DNA of 57,811 bases from Escherichia phage vB_EcoS_AVIO78A. The position numbers were made by a program, and so were the translations under genes. Within the stretch, counting starts at the first letter, position 1. The number at the start of each line of letters is the position of its first letter. Below, piece by piece: positions 31,587 to 38,159 of this stretch. The notes under the pieces are model-generated. The model was given only the letters and a program-made list of their open reading frames with translations, made no database searches and had not been told where the DNA came from. The DNA lies in the sequence record MZ726797.1; one strand, given 5' to 3'.

Positions 31587-31942
31587 TCGGCGATCGCTAC
31601 GATATTGACAAATGGAATTGTACACACGAGGTTAGTCAGTGGTATCAGATCAACAACTACCCACACGTATTGAAAACTGTTTCAGGTGATGAATGGGATA
31701 TTGCGTTTGTCAGATGGATGCGAAAACGTTTTTTACCAATTACCACACCGGAACAAGGTGCACTCGTACTGATGAAAAACAGATATTCAGGCGGTTTTCA
31801 TGTTGGCGTGTGGGATTGTGGAATGGTTCATCATTGTTATCAACCACCGGGTGATTCACCAGGACAGACAATCAGATCACCTTTAAGTATAATCAAGACA
31901 GCACATAAAGAAATCACGTTCTGGAGAATGAAAAGTGTCTAA
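31583..31942 (+). CDS. tail assembly protein (K-like, possible NlpC/P60-type Cys/His peptidase fold)
   Basis: position; conserved Cys and His residues. Confidence 0.35.
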   Translation: MIGDRYDIDKWNCTHEVSQWYQINNYPHVLKTVSGDEWDIAFVRWMRKRFLPITTPEQGALVLMKNRYSGGFHVGVWDCGMVHHCYQPPGDSPGQTIRSPLSIIKTAHKEITFWRMKSV

Positions 31943-34463
31943 AGTCATTTATCACACTAACCCTGTTGAACACGCTGATAACGTTGACTTTGGTGAATGG
32001 ATGCTGAAACGCTGGCCCGTGGGTACAGTTCGTCCGCGTGGGTTACTGATTTATAAAAATGATGAGAACATCACCCAAAAGTGGGTTACTGACCCCAGCG
32101 TGTTAACTGATCCTGACGCTATTTATCATATTTATGAACTACCAAAAGGTGGAGTGGTTAGTGCAATAACGAAAGTTATTAGCACAATTTTAAACCCCAT
32201 TTTAAAATTGTTCATGCCGAATACCAGTGCGTCGGCTAATCTTAAAAACTCACGTTCAGCATCGTCTAACAACGCGCTTCAGGGGCGTACTAATGCTTCA
32301 CGACCGGGTGAACGTATTTCTGATATCCGTGGTCGTGTACTGGCATATCCTGACCTGTTAATGGACTACCGAATCTTCATTGACCGAACAGAATATGAAG
32401 TTCAGTTTCTGTGTCTGGGCGCTGGTGAATACGAAGTCGAAGACGTTCGTGACGGTATTACACCTGCTTTAAATATCAGTGGTGAAAAATTAGACTTTTA
32501 TAAAAAAGGTAATGCGCCCGGTTATGGTTCGCCGTATATGAATATCGGTGGTGCAATTGATATCAACACTTTCCCGATCATGGTTACCAAGTCGTCGAAC
32601 GAAGCAGACGGGTCTGAAGTCAAGCCGCCAAACTATGCTGATATTAATAAAGCAAGTTTTAAAATTTACAGCACAGGTGAAATTGATACTACGATTTCTA
32701 GTGATGATAACACTACGATTGATTGGTCTGAACGTGCACCAATCGGTAGTAAAATACGTTTATCGCAATTTTACAGTTTTACACCTAACACGTTACCGTT
32801 AAACACGTATGTACGTAATGACCTGTCCGGTGAATATGATGTTATTTATGCAGGTGAGAATACGTTAATCATTGATACTACTGGTCGTGAAGGTTGGGAT
32901 GCTCTGTCTGAAAGTGGTCAGGCTGCATATACACAGGCTTATTTGCGAAACGATGGTTACTGGGAACTTGAAACCACTGAAGGAAGTGGAAGTATTTTAT
33001 ACAAGTTTTCACCGTCTCTTGACAGTACCACGCCGTATATTGTCGGACCTTATCTGATCGACAGTGCTGATAAGTTGATGATTAACCTTTATGCACAGAA
33101 TGGCGTGTATAAAACGGATGGTGATATTTATCCGTTTACATGTGACTTCCAGGTAATCTTGTCAGACCCGAACGGTGTGAAAGCAAATGTTACACACTCT
33201 ATGTCTGTCCGCGGTCGTTATACAGAAGCAGTAGGTAATTCATTAATCGTGGACAACCCTTTTGATGGTCCTGTTAACGTGTCTGTAAGACGACTATCAA
33301 ATACAGACAAAGATTTCGAAGGGTCTGTTGTTGACAACATCAAGTGGCGCGATTTATACGCTATTACAAATGTTTCTCCGCGTTCCTATGGTGATGTGAC
33401 ATTGATCCATACAGTGACGAAAGCAACAAACGCTGCACTGAAACAAAAAGAACGTAAATTAAACATGATTGCAACCCGTGTGTACAACGGTGTTGCAAGT
33501 AGTAATTTTGCAGACGTTGTAATGTCAATGCACACAGATCCTTTATTTGGTCGTCGAACATTAGATACCATTGATCGCGATGCTTTATATGCTGTTCAGG
33601 AACAACTTCTTGAATATTTTGGTGACCATCGAGCAATTGAAGTTGGCTATACGTTTGATAATAACAGTACGACGTACGAAGAAGGATTGGACACTATCTG
33701 TAACACGGTAAATGTTAAACCGTATCAGATCGGTAGTGTATTGTATTTTTGGCCTGAATTACCGCAAGACCAGTCCGCAATGCAGTTTGGTCATGCGTTT
33801 AAGATTCCTGACAGTGATAAACGCACACGTTCTTTCGCACCGCCTAAAGAATACACTGGTGTTCAGGTTAAATACTTCGACCGCGATGAAAAATCATATT
33901 TGTATGTAACCAAAGGTGAAGAAACAAACCTTAATAAGATAGATCTTGTTGCGTGTCAGTCGCGATATCTTGCAAACATTCGCGCTAATCGTGAGATGAA
34001 TAAGTTACGTTATCAACGTATCACCCATGAGTGTACAGCGCTTAGTATCGGGTTACAGGCTACCCCAGGTATGCGTGTGGATATGATTGATAATACCCGT
34101 ATGAAACAGCACGAAGGCGTTGTAGTTGATGTTGACGGTTTAACGCTTATTCTTAGTGATCCTGTTACGTTCACCACGGGTAATACATACAGTATAACGT
34201 TAACCCACCGACTGGGAACACTTGAAAATATTCCTGTAACTGCCGGGGATGATGAATTTTCAGTGGTAATGGCTTATCAACCGTCTGAAGAAATTTACAC
34301 GGGGTGGTTACGTGACCGTACAGCCTATATAATCCGTGCGGATAACGAACGTAGCAAATTAGCGATGCTTGTTCAGAGTATGGAACCGTCAGGAAGGGAT
34401 AACAATTATCAGGTAGGTTTAACGTGCATCAATTACGATGCACGTTATTATCAGGATGATTAA
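31935..34463 (+). CDS. tail tip / host specificity protein (J-like)
   Basis: 842 aa at end of tail block. Confidence 0.55.
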   Translation: MSKVIYHTNPVEHADNVDFGEWMLKRWPVGTVRPRGLLIYKNDENITQKWVTDPSVLTDPDAIYHIYELPKGGVVSAITKVISTILNPILKLFMPNTSASANLKNSRSASSNNALQGRTNASRPGERISDIRGRVLAYPDLLMDYRIFIDRTEYEVQFLCLGAGEYEVEDVRDGITPALNISGEKLDFYKKGNAPGYGSPYMNIGGAIDINTFPIMVTKSSNEADGSEVKPPNYADINKASFKIYSTGEIDTTISSDDNTTIDWSERAPIGSKIRLSQFYSFTPNTLPLNTYVRNDLSGEYDVIYAGENTLIIDTTGREGWDALSESGQAAYTQAYLRNDGYWELETTEGSGSILYKFSPSLDSTTPYIVGPYLIDSADKLMINLYAQNGVYKTDGDIYPFTCDFQVILSDPNGVKANVTHSMSVRGRYTEAVGNSLIVDNPFDGPVNVSVRRLSNTDKDFEGSVVDNIKWRDLYAITNVSPRSYGDVTLIHTVTKATNAALKQKERKLNMIATRVYNGVASSNFADVVMSMHTDPLFGRRTLDTIDRDALYAVQEQLLEYFGDHRAIEVGYTFDNNSTTYEEGLDTICNTVNVKPYQIGSVLYFWPELPQDQSAMQFGHAFKIPDSDKRTRSFAPPKEYTGVQVKYFDRDEKSYLYVTKGEETNLNKIDLVACQSRYLANIRANREMNKLRYQRITHECTALSIGLQATPGMRVDMIDNTRMKQHEGVVVDVDGLTLILSDPVTFTTGNTYSITLTHRLGTLENIPVTAGDDEFSVVMAYQPSEEIYTGWLRDRTAYIIRADNERSKLAMLVQSMEPSGRDNNYQVGLTCINYDARYYQDD

Positions 34464-36499
34464 ATCAATCCGTAAACGACATTGTGTATCGTGACGTCGC
34501 CAACAACAGAGGAAACATTAAAATTAATTTCAGCTTTGTAAGCTCCTGGTGGAACGCAATCCACCAAAGCATAAAAATTGAATGTGCCCCCTACTGGGAT
34601 GTTATACCCTATGGAATTTGCGACAGCATTTCCAGCCTGGTCCAGAAATCTAATTGTCGCTAGGGTTGTTGTTGCATTTTTAGCCCAAAAACCAAACTGG
34701 AAATATCTACCAGGCTCACAATCAATAACTGATTGAGTGAAGTTAGCTGAAGCATCTGCGGAGGGAACATTAATAATTATTGATGTTGAGAACATCATGT
34801 CATTAGGTACGTCATTGTTATATGATGCCGTAACAACACCTGTACCAGTTTGCGAGAGTGTCCAGTTAGATATGTTAAAAAACTGTCCTGAGCCATTACT
34901 AATACTATTAATATAAGGGCTTACAATGCACCCTAAATTCCAGTTACTTGTGATAAATCCTGCCCGTGGATAGCACCCTCTGGACATTACTTTTTTGCTC
35001 GCGCCACCTATCAACTGCCTGGTAGGGAATCCAGTGGCAATAGTAGTGTTCCCGTACAAAGGCAGGGAGCAATTGCTAAGAATAACCACGCCGTCATCGT
35101 TACTTACCACAGGAACAGAACTAAATCCGACAGGCAGTAATACTGTTGAGTCTTTGATGCTTAATCTTGAACTTCCTGCAACGGTAAAGCCAACAAAACT
35201 CTGACCAGGTTGATATTCTATATTTCCGTTGGAAAAAACAACCGTAGCACTATCTGATAATGCTATAGCAGGGTCGAAATAATCTGCTTTCTTACCAGCA
35301 GGAAGTGAGCAGCTATCGAATATAAATTGACCATTAACAAACGTGAAAGGTCCGCCGTTGTCAACCATCCAGCAGTGATTAAATTTTATAACCTCACCTG
35401 AATTCGCTGGTGAATTGAAAATAGCAGAATTTGTAAAACTTCTGGACAACGTACATTTATCAAAAAGGATACGATATGCATTATCAAGAAACTCAATTCC
35501 GGCAGTTGAGATAAACCCACTATTAGAGATTCTTAACTCTGATACTTCACCACTAGTAGAACCACCGATAGCCAATTTCCTGGTCCCTTTTCCAACAAAT
35601 GACACACCACTCATCAAAGCATTTGCGTTAACTGCATCTCTGTTAGTGTAATCCGCGCCTGTATTAATAATGGTTAGGTAGTAGTCACCCGTTACGGAAG
35701 CAGATTCTGTTAAAGTGCATTTATTTTTTCCAATAAGTGCGCCTTTTGCTATGTCTAAAACAATCGGTGTTGTTATCTCACCAGAAACAGGGACTACACA
35801 GTCAAATCCGGCAGAATTTATTTTGTTGATGAATACCGCCAAATCTTCGGTCCCAGTATAGCCAGCATCATACACATCCACGGTGCCATTGAAGAATTTT
35901 CTTTTCCATACCACCCCACTTCCTGAGAAGGTAACAATATTGTCTATAGTGGTATCCTCGCTAACAGCTACCATAATACCACCGCCAAGATTAAACCCGC
36001 TCACATACGAGTCAAGAATTATGGAATCGCCGATTGATCCTGATATTGATGATAACTCAGAAACTGATGATACAGTCCCTATATAAGACAAACCATTTGA
36101 TTTGTTTAAATCAGAACGTAACATTAAATCCGTCTGATTAACCCAGTGTGTAGCATCAATACCACCCGTAGTTGCAGGTGTTGAACCAGGTGGAACAATT
36201 TTAGGCAATGCACCCATCCACTGATAATAATTACCCTCTGATTCATATAATAGAGTTTCCCAACGATGATTTATCGTACCACCTGCTTCAAAAGAACCAT
36301 CAGCAGGTTTAAAACCAACCGAACTAAAAAAACCATCAAGCGTCGGATTAGTAACTGATTCGCCACGGATTGTATCTGTCACTTCCAGTGCAGGATTACC
36401 AGCAGCATCACGACTTTTCGCAACGTGTTCAATATGTAAAATCGCTTGTTTGCCTGTTTTCAAATCATCAGCACTGATATAATCGTTACAGTTAGCCAT
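34460..36499 (-). CDS. tail fibre / tailspike-like receptor-binding protein, reverse-oriented; composition suggests beta-helix (possible depolymerase)
   Basis: ORF 34460..36526 (TTG) trimmed to ATG 36499 with GGAGA RBS; 679 aa Gly/Ser/Asn/Thr-rich. Confidence 0.5.
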   Translation of the reverse strand: MANCNDYISADDLKTGKQAILHIEHVAKSRDAAGNPALEVTDTIRGESVTNPTLDGFFSSVGFKPADGSFEAGGTINHRWETLLYESEGNYYQWMGALPKIVPPGSTPATTGGIDATHWVNQTDLMLRSDLNKSNGLSYIGTVSSVSELSSISGSIGDSIILDSYVSGFNLGGGIMVAVSEDTTIDNIVTFSGSGVVWKRKFFNGTVDVYDAGYTGTEDLAVFINKINSAGFDCVVPVSGEITTPIVLDIAKGALIGKNKCTLTESASVTGDYYLTIINTGADYTNRDAVNANALMSGVSFVGKGTRKLAIGGSTSGEVSELRISNSGFISTAGIEFLDNAYRILFDKCTLSRSFTNSAIFNSPANSGEVIKFNHCWMVDNGGPFTFVNGQFIFDSCSLPAGKKADYFDPAIALSDSATVVFSNGNIEYQPGQSFVGFTVAGSSRLSIKDSTVLLPVGFSSVPVVSNDDGVVILSNCSLPLYGNTTIATGFPTRQLIGGASKKVMSRGCYPRAGFITSNWNLGCIVSPYINSISNGSGQFFNISNWTLSQTGTGVVTASYNNDVPNDMMFSTSIIINVPSADASANFTQSVIDCEPGRYFQFGFWAKNATTTLATIRFLDQAGNAVANSIGYNIPVGGTFNFYALVDCVPPGAYKAEINFNVSSVVGDVTIHNVVYGLI

Positions 36500-36525
36500 C
36501 TTTAAGTCTCCAGGAGTGTAGAACA

Positions 36526-36849
36526 ATGTCTGATAACCCAGTGTTGAGGTATTGGCCTATAATAGCATTTGTTGCCACGGGGTTGGTAGGTTACGGGGTA
36601 ACTCAAAACCAAATCAATTCTAATGAAAAAGATATTGCAGATGCAAAAACCTATGCGCATGAGGCGCTCAATCTGGCAAAGCGAGTGGAATCCCGTGTGG
36701 ATGTTCATGATATCAAAATCGAATATCAGGCAACACAGAACGCTGAAATTCTCACCAGTGTTAAAGAGCTAACACAGTCAACAAATGACCTGAAAGTTGT
36801 TATTGAAGGTTTGAAAGCGGAACAACGTAAAACCGGGAGTAAGCAATGA
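36526..36849 (+). CDS. membrane-anchored coiled-coil protein at head of lysis cassette (possible holin/antiholin)
   Basis: N-terminal TM segment then coiled coil. Confidence 0.3.
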   Translation: MSDNPVLRYWPIIAFVATGLVGYGVTQNQINSNEKDIADAKTYAHEALNLAKRVESRVDVHDIKIEYQATQNAEILTSVKELTQSTNDLKVVIEGLKAEQRKTGSKQ

Positions 36850-37235
36850 GTAACTTTAAATTCAGCCAGAGAAGTGAAAATAATCTGAAAGGGGTTAACC
36901 CGGATCTTGTGAAAATCGTGCGTCGGGCACTTCAGTTGTCACCCGTTGATTTCGGTATCACAGAAGGTTTACGAACTGTTGAAAGACAACGACAACTGGT
37001 TGCGGCAGGTAAGAGTCAGACAATGAACAGTCGCCATATTTCGGGTCATGCTGTGGATGTATTTGCTTATCCTACATCTGCCGGGTCGTGGGAGTGGAAG
37101 TATTACGAACAAATTGCCACTGCATTTAAACAGGCTGCAAAAGAACTGAATATCCCTGTTGAATGGGGTGGTGACTGGAAAACACTGAAAGATGGTCCAC
37201 ACTTCCAGTTACCACATGCGAAATATCCCGCGTGA
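36846..37235 (+). CDS. endolysin (L-alanyl-D-glutamate peptidase, M15/VanY-like)
   Basis: SRHISGHAVDVFAYP-type metal-binding motif; size; adjacent holin and spanins. Confidence 0.7.
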   Translation: MSNFKFSQRSENNLKGVNPDLVKIVRRALQLSPVDFGITEGLRTVERQRQLVAAGKSQTMNSRHISGHAVDVFAYPTSAGSWEWKYYEQIATAFKQAAKELNIPVEWGGDWKTLKDGPHFQLPHAKYPA

Positions 37236-37245
37236 GATAACAATC

Positions 37246-37476
37246 ATGGATAAATTCAGCATATTACGTAACACAACCGGGGGGATCTCTTTAAGCCGCG
37301 CACAAGCGGCTTTAGGCTTCCTCGTGGTGACAGGTATTCTGATTTACCAGGCAGTAGACCGCACACTTGATGATACAGTGTTATTAACCTATTTCGGTTT
37401 CTGTATAGGTCAGTATGTTGGTGCTAAAAAAATCGCTGTAGATAAACAACGAGGTACACCAAATGACAACCCGTAG
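37246..37476 (+). CDS. holin-like small membrane protein
   Basis: ORF 37192..37476 trimmed to ATG 37246; two hydrophobic segments. Confidence 0.4.
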   Translation: MDKFSILRNTTGGISLSRAQAALGFLVVTGILIYQAVDRTLDDTVLLTYFGFCIGQYVGAKKIAVDKQRGTPNDNP

Positions 37477-37861
37477 TGTGTTAATCACCGTTGTTGCAAC
37501 TGTTCTGGTATTAGGTGCCGGTGCTTATACATGTTATCACGCTGGGTATAAAGCACGGGTAAACGAAGAACGTCAGGAACGTTTAGAGGATGCACAACGG
37601 GAACAACAAAGGTTAAAAGCACAACAGGAACTTGCGGATGATGTACTTCGTGGTTTAGCTGACTGGTCGCAGAATACTAAAATCGTGGAAATACGACATG
37701 AAAAGACTAATACTGTTTTTCGTAACGAGTGTCTTACTTCTGAATATCAACGCTTGTACAACGAACGAGTTACCGAAGCAGAAGCCCGTTTATCAGGCCG
37801 CATTAGTTCAGAAGTGTCAGACCGAAAACCTTCCACGGCTGAACGGTCTGACAGGAAGTGA
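37463..37861 (+). CDS. i-spanin (Rz-like)
   Basis: N-terminal TM, charged coiled-coil body, contains embedded o-spanin ORF. Confidence 0.6.
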   Translation: MTTRSVLITVVATVLVLGAGAYTCYHAGYKARVNEERQERLEDAQREQQRLKAQQELADDVLRGLADWSQNTKIVEIRHEKTNTVFRNECLTSEYQRLYNERVTEAEARLSGRISSEVSDRKPSTAERSDRK

Positions 37862-37946
37862 TTCAACAGATGTTAATGACCAGTGGTTAGATATTTATTT
37901 CAAATGTGCAACTATTCACAACGCATTAGTAGACAGTCTTCAGTAA
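37698..37946 (+). CDS. o-spanin (Rz1-like lipoprotein) embedded in and extending past i-spanin
   Basis: signal peptide with INAC lipobox, alternate frame within 37463..37861. Confidence 0.6.
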   Translation: MKRLILFFVTSVLLLNINACTTNELPKQKPVYQAALVQKCQTENLPRLNGLTGSDSTDVNDQWLDIYFKCATIHNALVDSLQ

Positions 37947-38159
37947 ATCTTCAACCGACACCTCAATCCACGATGCGGGAACCGGATATTCAGTCCGGTA
38001 CATGAACAAGGATGTTCCTATCAACCCGTGTGGATCTGTTTTAATCCCTCGCATGTTCAACAACGGAAAAAACTGTTCACGCGTTTGTGGTAATCGTGCA
38101 AAGCGTCCTGTCGGGCGTTTAGCAGGATCCATAGGGTTGAATTCAACGATTGTGGACAT
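37926..38159 (-). CDS. hypothetical protein
   Basis: ORF track. Confidence 0.4.
   Translation of the reverse strand: MSTIVEFNPMDPAKRPTGRFARLPQTREQFFPLLNMRGIKTDPHGLIGTSLFMYRTEYPVPASWIEVSVEDLLKTVY

Follow-up and report, generated by a model that had tools for sequence, protein, structure and literature searches.

A leftward-encoded tailspike with an exchangeable, TSP4-like body in the Escherichia siphovirus vB_EcoS_AVIO78A

Tailspike TSP4 (ORF213, PDB 5W6H) of the Kuttervirus CBA120 is a protein of 1036 aa. It carries a 335-residue baseplate anchor with gp10-like domains XD1-3, which nucleates a branched four-spike complex, followed by the domains D1 and D2, a neck, D3', D3 and D4. TSP1 to TSP4 are described as trimeric proteins (PMC8825819), and cleavage of the E. 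coli O78 O-antigen has been reported for TSP4 (PMC8825819, PMC10408124). When its residues 480-1036 were grafted onto phage SPTD1, plaquing on an O78 strain was obtained (PMC9965104). The active sites of tailspikes are located in the beta-helix (PMC7506556). Among the 9NA-like siphoviruses (Nonanavirus/Sashavirus), the tailspike-receptor system of P22 also served to measure DNA ejection by 9NA in vitro (PMC6024685), while the way in which the 9NA tailspike is attached has yet to be seen (PMC12724387). Bas82 depends on the O16 O-antigen and is described as having a single glycan-targeting tailspike (PMC11990801). Escherichia phage vB_EcoS_AVIO78A was published as a Sashavirus of 57.8 kb with 43.7% GC and no tRNA; it lysed three of three O78 strains and none of three O1/O2 strains (PMC10612097).

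The window, i.e. the whole 57,811-bp stretch of AVIO78A DNA analysed here, has 43.74% GC and no tRNA. Its minus strand carries a tailspike CDS at 34460..36499 (679 aa, with the stop codon at 34460-34462). Although the open reading frame reaches back to an upstream TTG (34460..36526, minus strand, 688 aa), the ATG at 36499 (MANC...) gives exactly 679 aa, corresponds to the annotated start in all relatives and is preceded, with an 8-nt spacer, by GGAG at 36511-36508. Gly (10.5%), Ser (10.9%), Asn (7.5%) and Thr (7.8%) make up 36.7% of the protein. The ORF is not a chance one, because its product matches PHROG 4217 'tail protein' (E=1.6e-257) and, over residues 65-679 and with no large gaps, PDB 5W6H (1107 bits, reported E-value 0), and because an identical protein, in an identical gene arrangement, is present in the independent public assembly SRR27558763. 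The tailspike gene converges with a J-like tail-tip gene (31935..34463, plus strand, 842 aa; PHROG 469 'tail protein', E=4e-217; Pfam FNIII-A_GpJ below threshold, 22.3 bits, cutoff 27) that has no long C-terminal fibre, and the two stop codons share TTAA at 34460-34463, a 4-nt overlap. On its other side lies the lysis cassette (36526..37946, plus strand), identified by Pfam matches and by annotation in relatives. It comprises a holin-like gene (36526-36849), an M15 endolysin (36846-37235; Pfam Peptidase_M15_4, 49.3 bits, cutoff 25), a 2-TM membrane protein (about 37246-37476), an i-spanin (37463-37861) and an embedded o-spanin (37698-37946), with additional sub-threshold matches to DUF2644 and LysC/Rz1-like. 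The start codons of the tailspike and of the lysis cassette are divergent and exactly 26 nt apart. Thus, the initial annotation was right in describing a leftward 679-aa protein rich in these four residues, convergent with the J-like gene and divergent from the lysis genes at about 27 nt.

The same leftward position between the J-like and lysis genes is seen in the annotated loci of 9NA, PJ16, Bas82, Sasha, PDP46, Carvaje and Kpn BU9, and the tailspike lies on the opposite strand in every 9NA-like relative examined, whatever its body type. This placement is ancestral to the whole 9NA-like group and is therefore uninformative on recent transfer: it is real, as first noted, but it is not a sign of recent acquisition. 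In most 9NA-type relatives, the stop codons of the tailspike and J-like genes are separated by a spacer or by additional genes; in AVIO78A and PJ16, the 4-nt overlap takes their place.

The divergent start region is also common to the 9NA-type counterparts. Its 26-nt spacer (36500..36525, assigned to neither strand) holds both ribosome-binding sites within an imperfect palindrome, CTCC-A-GGAG (36508-36516), and in eight relatives it is 26-28 nt long with largely conserved flanks. On the plus strand, inside tailspike codons 6-9, an extended -10-like motif, TGATATAAT (36475..36483), is invariant in eight relatives including the Klebsiella Carvajevirus clade, and its genome-wide count is at chance level. 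It is a candidate, still unproven, for the promoter of the lysis cassette. Synonymous variation is lower in tailspike codons 1-18 than in codons 19-57 (Fisher p=0.008). This nucleotide-level constraint at a compact divergent start region may deserve follow-up.

The tailspike is a mosaic of three modules: an anchor (residues 1-57), a D2-type head (58-122) and a body (123-679). The anchor module (36329..36499, minus strand) is common to all 9NA-like siphoviruses, and this conserved N-terminal anchor (MANCNDYISADDLKTGKQAILHIEHVAKS...) is a trait of their tailspikes. It is 81-97% identical to its counterparts in Salmonella phage 9NA (gp55), Sasha, Bas82, PDP46 and PJ16, and the DNA of nt 1-140 is 88-100% identical to that of relatives from the Salmonella/Escherichia clade. 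The tailspikes of Sergei and Solent share the anchor, the locus and the leftward orientation as well. A helix at residues 10-28, a beta-hairpin at 39-52 and a second helix at 54-61 were predicted with low to moderate confidence (pLDDT 43-72), and sequence searches for a solved homologue of the 9NA-type anchor found none. A comparable layout is seen in gp13 of the Shigella siphophage Sf11 (PDB 9OCC), which has an anchor of ~57-59 residues and then a homologous head, at 57-177 in both proteins. In the literature consulted, gp13 is the one siphophage tailspike whose docking has been resolved, three N-terminal helices bundling with an adaptor helix of the distal tail protein. The two anchors have no detectable sequence similarity, and the gp13 body is Sf6/P22-like.

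The head domain (36134..36328, minus strand) matches Pfam Tail_spike_N (PF18668) over residues 68-121 with 51.3 bits, above the curated gathering threshold of 25. It aligns with TSP4 424-478, which is D2 and not D1. The D1 head domain (TSP4 340-421) is absent, the homology starting at TSP4 424, equivalent to residue 65 of the AVIO78A protein. D2 is 95% identical to that of PJ16 and only 41-47% identical to those of 9NA, Sasha, Bas82, ASO78B and TSP4 (about 45% for the last). It belongs to allelic class A. Of the 79 anchor-bearing proteins of 9NA type among the best database matches, 43 have this class; most of the 9NA-type relatives compared here have class B. The protein as a whole was rejected as a Kuttervirus TSP4 proper, the hub of the branched TSP1-4 complex: at 679 versus 1036 aa, it has no counterpart to the ~335-residue anchor with XD1-XD3. 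It has instead the 57-residue siphovirus anchor and is very probably the sole spike of its phage.

The body starts with a neck helix that contains a natural recombination junction (residues 123-143, ...DLMLRSDLNKSNGLSYIG...; 36071..36133, minus strand). The D3' insertion module follows (144-200; 35900..36070, minus strand), which maps to TSP4 501-557, the published boundaries being 503-557 (PMC7506556), and which is 100% identical to that of ASO78B and 82.5% to that of TSP4. D3 is a parallel beta-helix (201-495, with an approximate D3/D4 border; 35015..35899, minus strand) and presumably the O78 O-antigen glycosidase; its identity is 98.6% to ASO78B, 90.5% to PJ16 and 84.7% to TSP4. D4 (496-679; 34463..35014, minus strand) is a carbohydrate-binding-like beta-sandwich, following the published description of D4 (PMC7506556), with 83% identity to TSP4, 85% to PJ16 and only 80% to ASO78B, and a weak structural match to the CBM61 module 2XOM (Foldseek). 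An AlphaFold2 monomer model (mean pLDDT 81) shows the neck helix, the beta-helix and the beta-sandwich, D3 being a run of short strands with pLDDT of about 85-97. Foldseek ranks 5W6H first among its PDB matches (E=1.2e-79), and further trimeric depolymerase tailspikes come next. Together with the Tail_spike_N match and the alignment of residues 65-679 with TSP4, the model bears out the original reading of a receptor-binding tailspike, and the beta-helix that structure prediction was meant to look for is there. Module boundaries, homology, fold, synteny and mosaic pattern are shown by the analysis, and we infer that the protein forms trimers, is enzymatically active, is specific for O78 and is present in the virion.

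The history of the body differs from that of the anchor. Starting at nt ~385 and continuing as far as the stop codon, its DNA shares 83-100% identity with the tailspike genes of phage groups that are not related to AVIO78A, namely Kuttervirus myoviruses, siphovirus ASO78B, G7C-like podoviruses, PD06-type large phages and the phiHAO78-1/phiWAO78-1 siphoviruses, while the genus-mates Sasha, 9NA and Bas82 have unrelated bodies at the same locus. Apart from PJ16, the 9NA-type counterparts have bodies of only 14-21% identity, that of 9NA being a P22-type endorhamnosidase. DNA homology to O78-type donors starts at nt 385-389, conservation among anchor-bearing proteins drops sharply at about residue 130, and the junction of the engineered chimera, TSP4 residue 480, corresponds to residue 123. 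In unrelated phages and prophages, close copies of the body are joined to other kinds of anchor, of which there are at least six, P22 head-binding, T7-fibre and Kuttervirus anchors among them. The 79 proteins that have the 9NA-type anchor fall into two D2 classes, with at least 35 different bodies in one class and at least 28 in the other. The body is itself an internal patchwork of different O78-type alleles. Compared with ASO78B_062, a 'tail fibers protein' of vB_EcoS_ASO78B, a phage of serogroup O78 hosts described in the same study as AVIO78A, the DNA is 97-100% identical over nt 441-1460 and D3'/D3 are 99-100% identical, but ASO78B_062 has another anchor, and its D2 and D4 are only 47% and 80% identical. 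Its gene runs in the same direction as the tail gene upstream of it, and at its end a GC-rich bidirectional terminator separates it from an SSB gene that faces it. These comparisons indicate that the body is a mobile cassette, which recombines in the neck, around residue 123-130, and at its other end at the stop codon. The proposal of a horizontally acquired host-range module therefore stands for residues about 123-130 to 679, by DNA identity with unrelated groups, but not for the position and orientation of the gene or for its N-terminal anchor, which were inherited within the lineage.

The final codons of the J-like gene contain, 12 nt past the tailspike stop, a perfect hairpin with an 11-bp stem, TAACGTGCATC-aattac-GATGCACGTTA (34420..34447, assigned to neither strand), which the 9NA-type counterparts share. 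Its RNA fold z-scores are -5.9 on the plus strand and -4.8 on the minus strand. The hairpin is invariant in seven relatives, synonymous variation is suppressed at its position (Fisher p=2e-4), and the records of Sasha, Sergei and Solent annotate it as a terminator. For the tailspike mRNA it could serve as a 3' terminator or as a stabiliser, and it is also a candidate cassette border. The same stem also occurs in non-coding DNA adjoining the tailspike modules of Roufvirus-type phages, an observation that may deserve follow-up.

Residues 123-679, i.e. the neck, D3', D3 and D4, are 83.5% identical to TSP4 480-1036 over 557 aligned residues, which is exactly the segment that was grafted onto SPTD1. 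At the DNA level, the body is closest to those of ASO78B, phiHAO78-1 and phiWAO78-1, all of them phages that were isolated on O78 hosts. By homology and fold, the body is best assigned to the O78-type receptor-binding bodies (TSP4 type; the 'O78 RBP subtype' of Pas et al. 2023), and, by its likeness to TSP4, it would function as a trimeric O78 O-antigen glycosidase. The possible polysaccharide-depolymerase activity raised by the initial annotation is thus supported by homology to a reported O78 O-antigen cleaver. It could be argued that specificity has drifted to another glycan, such as another O-type or the K80 capsule of O78:K80 strains, since 16.5% of the body differs from TSP4, the most divergent part, D4, reaches only 80-85% identity with any of the relatives, the body is patched together from different alleles and some hosts of related phages are listed as O78:K80. 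Such a drift is very unlikely: the beta-helix shares 98.6% identity with that of ASO78B, which was isolated on O78 strains and infects no others, AVIO78A itself lyses O78 strains only, reported TSP4 activity is on the O78 O-antigen, and the serogroup stays the same within a body subtype even when the sequences have diverged much further (Pas et al., PMC10408124). A subtle shift of specificity could nevertheless accompany the divergence of D4.

Likewise, since the catalytic residues of TSP4 were not mapped in the literature searched, the protein might bind the O-antigen as a catalytically inactive, pure adhesin. We regard this as having hardly any likelihood. Residues 130 to 679 comprise 550 positions, 178 of which do not vary across 34 homologues, including 13 acidic residues of the beta-helix (D219, D233, D249, E265, D288, E318, E321, E336, D347, E369, D380, E428 and D469). 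Identity to an active homologue is high (the 5W6H title refers to an 'enzymatically active domain'), and a phage with one tailspike type and no fibre must cross the O-antigen layer.

In the proposed mode of action, the tailspike would be a homotrimer whose first ~57 residues dock it to the tail tip, with the D2-type head and the short helical neck coming next. The D3'/D3/D4 body would bind the E. coli O78 O-antigen and cut it as an endoglycosidase, and repeated binding and cleavage would lower the tail tip across the LPS layer until it reaches the outer membrane, the site at which release of the DNA would be triggered. Alternatively, the tailspike may only aid penetration of the O-antigen, with the J-like tip protein recognising a protein receptor and setting the host range. 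Many siphoviruses, such as Dhillonvirus, do pair glycan-binding lateral proteins with a porin-binding central fibre (PMC11990801), and the J-like protein has a partial match to 'central tail fiber J'. We give this division of labour little credence. The J-like protein is short (842 aa) and resembles lambda J only in part, and a search for further receptor-binding candidates found none. The J-like gene is conserved across relatives with different hosts, while the tailspike body varies with the host. Moreover, the Nonanavirus Bas82 is described as having a single glycan-targeting RBP where other phages have porin binders (BASEL study, PMC11990801), and in vitro ejection by 9NA was measured with the P22 tailspike-receptor system (PMC6024685).

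Taken together, these features make it very probable that the tailspike is the sole receptor-binding protein of a 9NA-like siphovirus, an enzyme that cleaves the O78 O-antigen and has a mobile body. The gene is genuine, but it is an unremarkable member of a type that is already well understood. The body would set which O-antigen is recognised, and would therefore set the host range of the phage, serogroup O78.

The tailspike gene is located on the minus strand, where the ORF list gave a reading frame at 34460..36526 coding for 688 aa when read from TTG. The ATG at 36499, which has GGAG upstream with an 8-nt spacer, yields a tailspike of exactly 679 aa, and the same start is annotated in every annotated relative. 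The TTG start at 36526 was rejected, since it lacks a ribosome-binding site and overlaps the lysis-gene ATG, and since all relatives start at MANC. Together, Gly, Ser, Asn and Thr account for 36.7% of the residues, in line with the initial annotation, which had described a leftward 679-aa protein rich in these amino acids. The ORF coordinates also confirmed that the gene is convergent with the J-like tail-tip gene (31935..34463, 842 aa) and divergent from the lysis cassette, which encodes a holin-like protein, an M15 endolysin, a membrane protein and an i-spanin with embedded o-spanin. The tailspike and J-like genes overlap by 4 nt because the TTAA at 34460-34463 is common to both stop codons, while the tailspike and lysis start codons are separated by exactly 26 nt, where about 27 had been noted. 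The same gene arrangement with an identical protein was found in an independent public assembly, one Logan contig of run SRR27558763. The o-spanin gene (37698-37946, plus strand) overlaps the next gene (37926-38159, minus strand) convergently by 21 nt (37926-37946), an overlap that is also annotated in Bas82 and Sasha. Flanked by this overlap and by the tailspike, the 1.4-kb lysis cassette is therefore a rightward island between leftward genes.

A Pfam search matched Tail_spike_N (PF18668) at tailspike residues 68-121, the PHROGs match was 'tail protein' (E=1.6e-257), and residues 65-679 aligned end to end (1107 bits) with PDB 5W6H, the enzymatically active domain of tailspike protein 4 (TSP4) of Kuttervirus CBA120. 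Module limits were taken from the published TSP4 domain boundaries (PMC7506556, PMC8825819) and from our own alignment. The protein consists of a lineage anchor (residues 1-57) with no TSP4 counterpart, a D2-type head domain (58-122; TSP4 424-478), a neck (123-143; TSP4 from 480), D3' (144-200; TSP4 501-557), a D3 beta-helix (about 201-495) and a D4 beta-sandwich (about 496-679; TSP4 to 1036). Unlike TSP4, it has neither a D1 domain nor the 335-residue XD assembly region. The AlphaFold2 model (mean pLDDT 81) begins with an N-terminal helix and a small beta domain; after a neck helix come short strands in a long series and finally a beta-sandwich. The beta-helix on which the initial annotation had made its reading depend is present in the model, whose best PDB match was 5W6H (E=1.2e-79), with Klebsiella, Acinetobacter and further CBA120 depolymerase tailspikes ranking next. 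Similarity among the available anchor sequences is 80-97%. A sequence search with residues 1-70 gave no solved homologue of the anchor beyond marginal matches to enterovirus VP1 (E about 0.03). The resemblance to the VP1 N-terminus spans window 36310-36487 (tailspike residues 5-63) and was taken as chance.

TSP4 residues 480-1036 correspond exactly to residues 123-679 of the window tailspike (hereafter the body), with 83.5% identity. Cleavage of the E. coli O78 O-antigen has been reported for TSP4 (PMC8825819, PMC10408124), whose residues 480-1036, when grafted onto TSP4 of phage SPTD1, enabled that phage to plaque on an O78 strain (PMC9965104). The closest DNA relatives of the body are phages isolated on O78 hosts, namely ASO78B, phiHAO78-1 and phiWAO78-1. 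AVIO78A itself lysed 3/3 O78 avian pathogenic E. coli strains and 0/3 O1/O2 strains, and ASO78B, an unrelated siphovirus from the same study, has a host range that is likewise O78-restricted (PMC10612097). No further receptor-binding candidates were found in the window, and the J-like protein is short, with only a partial match to lambda J. The genus-mate Bas82 needs the host O-antigen, via a single glycan-targeting tailspike (PMC11990801), and DNA ejection by 9NA was measured in vitro, its tailspike-receptor system being the same as that of P22 (PMC6024685). The window phage most likely uses the standard tailspike mechanism: trimeric spikes at the tail tip would bind the O78 O-antigen and hydrolyse it, the tip would thereby come down to the membrane, and serogroup specificity would be set by the body. 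Thirteen beta-helix carboxylates are invariant in 34 homologues (D219, D233, D249, E265, D288, E318, E321, E336, D347, E369, D380, E428 and D469) and are candidate catalytic residues. The tailspike is very probably an O-antigen-specific depolymerase with exchangeable modules, a well-known kind of protein; what the initial annotation had observed was real, and its interpretation was essentially right.

Sliding-window DNA identity along the tailspike gene gave a three-segment pattern. Nucleotides 1-140 are common to the Salmonella/Escherichia clade of 9NA-like relatives (88-100% identity), nt 141-385 have high identity to PJ16 only, and the segment from nt ~385 to the stop is common to unrelated phage groups and not to Sasha, 9NA, Bas82 or PDP46. 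This distribution of the body bears out the earlier proposal of a horizontally acquired host-range module. Homology to CBA120 reaches 4 nt short of the gene end, and homology of the J-like gene to relatives restarts directly past it; the junction is therefore seamless, the intergenic spacer of other relatives being gone. PJ16 has the same arrangement at this junction. Within the body, nt 441-1460 show 97-100% identity to ASO78B, and nt 1521-1640 and 1941-2000 are nearer to PJ16 and CBA120 than to ASO78B, a patchwork that points to repeated exchange among O78-type alleles. In the body (window 34463-36133), D4 is only 80% identical to ASO78B, unlike D3' and D3, which are 99-100% identical; this suggests that D4 was exchanged separately from the beta-helix.

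In database searches, the O78-type body turned up attached to several anchors, among them P22 head-binding, T7-fibre, Kuttervirus and G7C-like ones. In the other direction, dozens of different bodies are carried by 79 proteins of the 9NA anchor type that are among the best database matches. Their D2 domains (window 36134-36328 in AVIO78A) form two allelic classes, 43 window-like and 36 9NA-like, each joined to dozens of bodies, and in both, conservation breaks down near residue 130. The same modular pattern was described by Pas et al. (PMC10408124). This is textbook modular evolution of receptor-binding proteins and no surprise, and it adds the 9NA-like siphoviruses to those phage groups in which the O78-type body is found.

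The window is 57,811 bp long, with 43.74% GC, and no tRNA genes were found in it; AVIO78A was described as a siphovirus of 57.8 kb and 43.7% GC, without tRNA, and placed in Sashavirus (PMC10612097). Over 13 kb, the flanks of the tailspike are 93-96% identical to the 9NA-like siphoviruses PJ16, Solent, Sergei, Sasha, PDP46, BDX09P1 and Bas82, and more distantly similar to 9NA and the Klebsiella Carvajevirus group. In 9NA, Sasha, PJ16, Bas82, PDP46, Carvaje and Kpn BU9 alike, the tailspike reads leftward, lies between the J-like and lysis genes and is separated from the latter by a divergent spacer of 26-28 nt. The orientation is therefore ancestral and uninformative on the recent body swap. That the opposite strand marks a recent acquisition was rejected, since this orientation occurs in all 9NA-like relatives examined and the gene does not differ from the adjacent tail genes in GC content (0.41). 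In some relatives, extra genes lie between the J-like gene and the tailspike (L003:8296-8688, L007:7469-7732 and L008:6363-6632, in the loci used for comparison). The extra gene of Bas82 is an SSB, a typical flank of ASO78B and Roufvirus-type tailspike loci. Immediately downstream of the tailspike, a gene of 87-89 aa is present in PDP46 and Carvaje, and no similarity was found between the Carvaje gene and an equal-sized gene of Klebsiella phage KpnS_VR6602. The window and PJ16 have no gene at this position, just the 4-nt overlap.

At the 3' border, a perfect hairpin with an 11-bp stem (34420-34447) lies 12 nt past the tailspike stop, in the final codons of the J-like gene and within a conserved block at 34407-34459. 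It folds far better than shuffled sequence (z-scores -5.9 and -4.8) and is invariant in 7 relatives. Synonymous variation is suppressed at the hairpin: the proportion of testable codons that vary is 6/17 there and 349/445 in the remainder of the J-like gene (p=2e-4). The hairpin is annotated as a terminator in the Sasha, Sergei and Solent records. The same stem with another loop occurs in non-coding DNA just past the leftward tailspike module of Roufvirus pYD38-A and pIS4-A and of KpnS_VR6602, where a U-rich tract follows it on the tailspike strand; copies were located at L011:3501-3541 and L012:2542-2582, two of the compared loci. The hairpin may terminate or stabilise the tailspike mRNA, and it may also serve as a homology arm permitting seamless body swaps between genera.

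At the 5' border (36475-36525), both ribosome-binding sites lie within one imperfect palindrome, CTCC-A-GGAG. The sequence TGATATAAT at 36475-36483, within tailspike codons 6-9, shows no change across 8 relatives. Tailspike codons 1-18 also have suppressed synonymous variation when set against codons 19-57 (p=0.008). A consensus scan for canonical sigma-70 promoters and intrinsic terminators around the tailspike gave no excess over shuffled sequence, and found no site on the minus strand upstream of the gene. The minus-strand extended -10 candidate TGCTATTAT (about 36569-36561, in the holin-like gene) was unsupported by synonymous-site analysis, as 5 of 8 testable codons among the first 15 vary. 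As a promoter motif, TGNTATAAT gained no support from its count, its 2 copies in the window being at chance level; the position of the second copy (16148) proves little because a terminator hairpin adjoins it. The only other TGATATAAT in the window directly precedes this strong terminator-like hairpin, CCTCAGT-gtgttaa-ACTGAGG with a T run, which ends at the ATG of a 319-aa ORF (16187); motif and hairpin together occupy 16148-16186. Any promoters must sit inside the neighbouring coding regions, and the two mRNAs could therefore be complementary at their 5' ends. An extended -10 within the tailspike codons may be the promoter of the lysis genes, and tailspike and lysis expression may be coupled through overlapping signals placed back to back in the 5' border, which comprises the 26-nt spacer and the first ~18 tailspike codons.

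We consider it possible, but rather doubtful, that the 9NA-like tailspike locus is a bounded expression-and-exchange cassette, with both borders conserved at the nucleotide level beyond protein-coding need, signals at the 5' border and the hairpin at the 3' border. These conserved border elements are the sole part of the locus that might repay more work, the rest being ordinary for its kind. For AVIO78A, a phage being evaluated against avian pathogenic E. coli, the analysis names the O78 O-antigen as the specific receptor of the tailspike and gives the protein a likely enzymatic activity, and the predicted route to resistance would be loss or alteration of the O-antigen. The natural junction at residues ~123-130 coincides with the junction proven in engineered chimeras, and is useful for the design of host-range swaps in this backbone.
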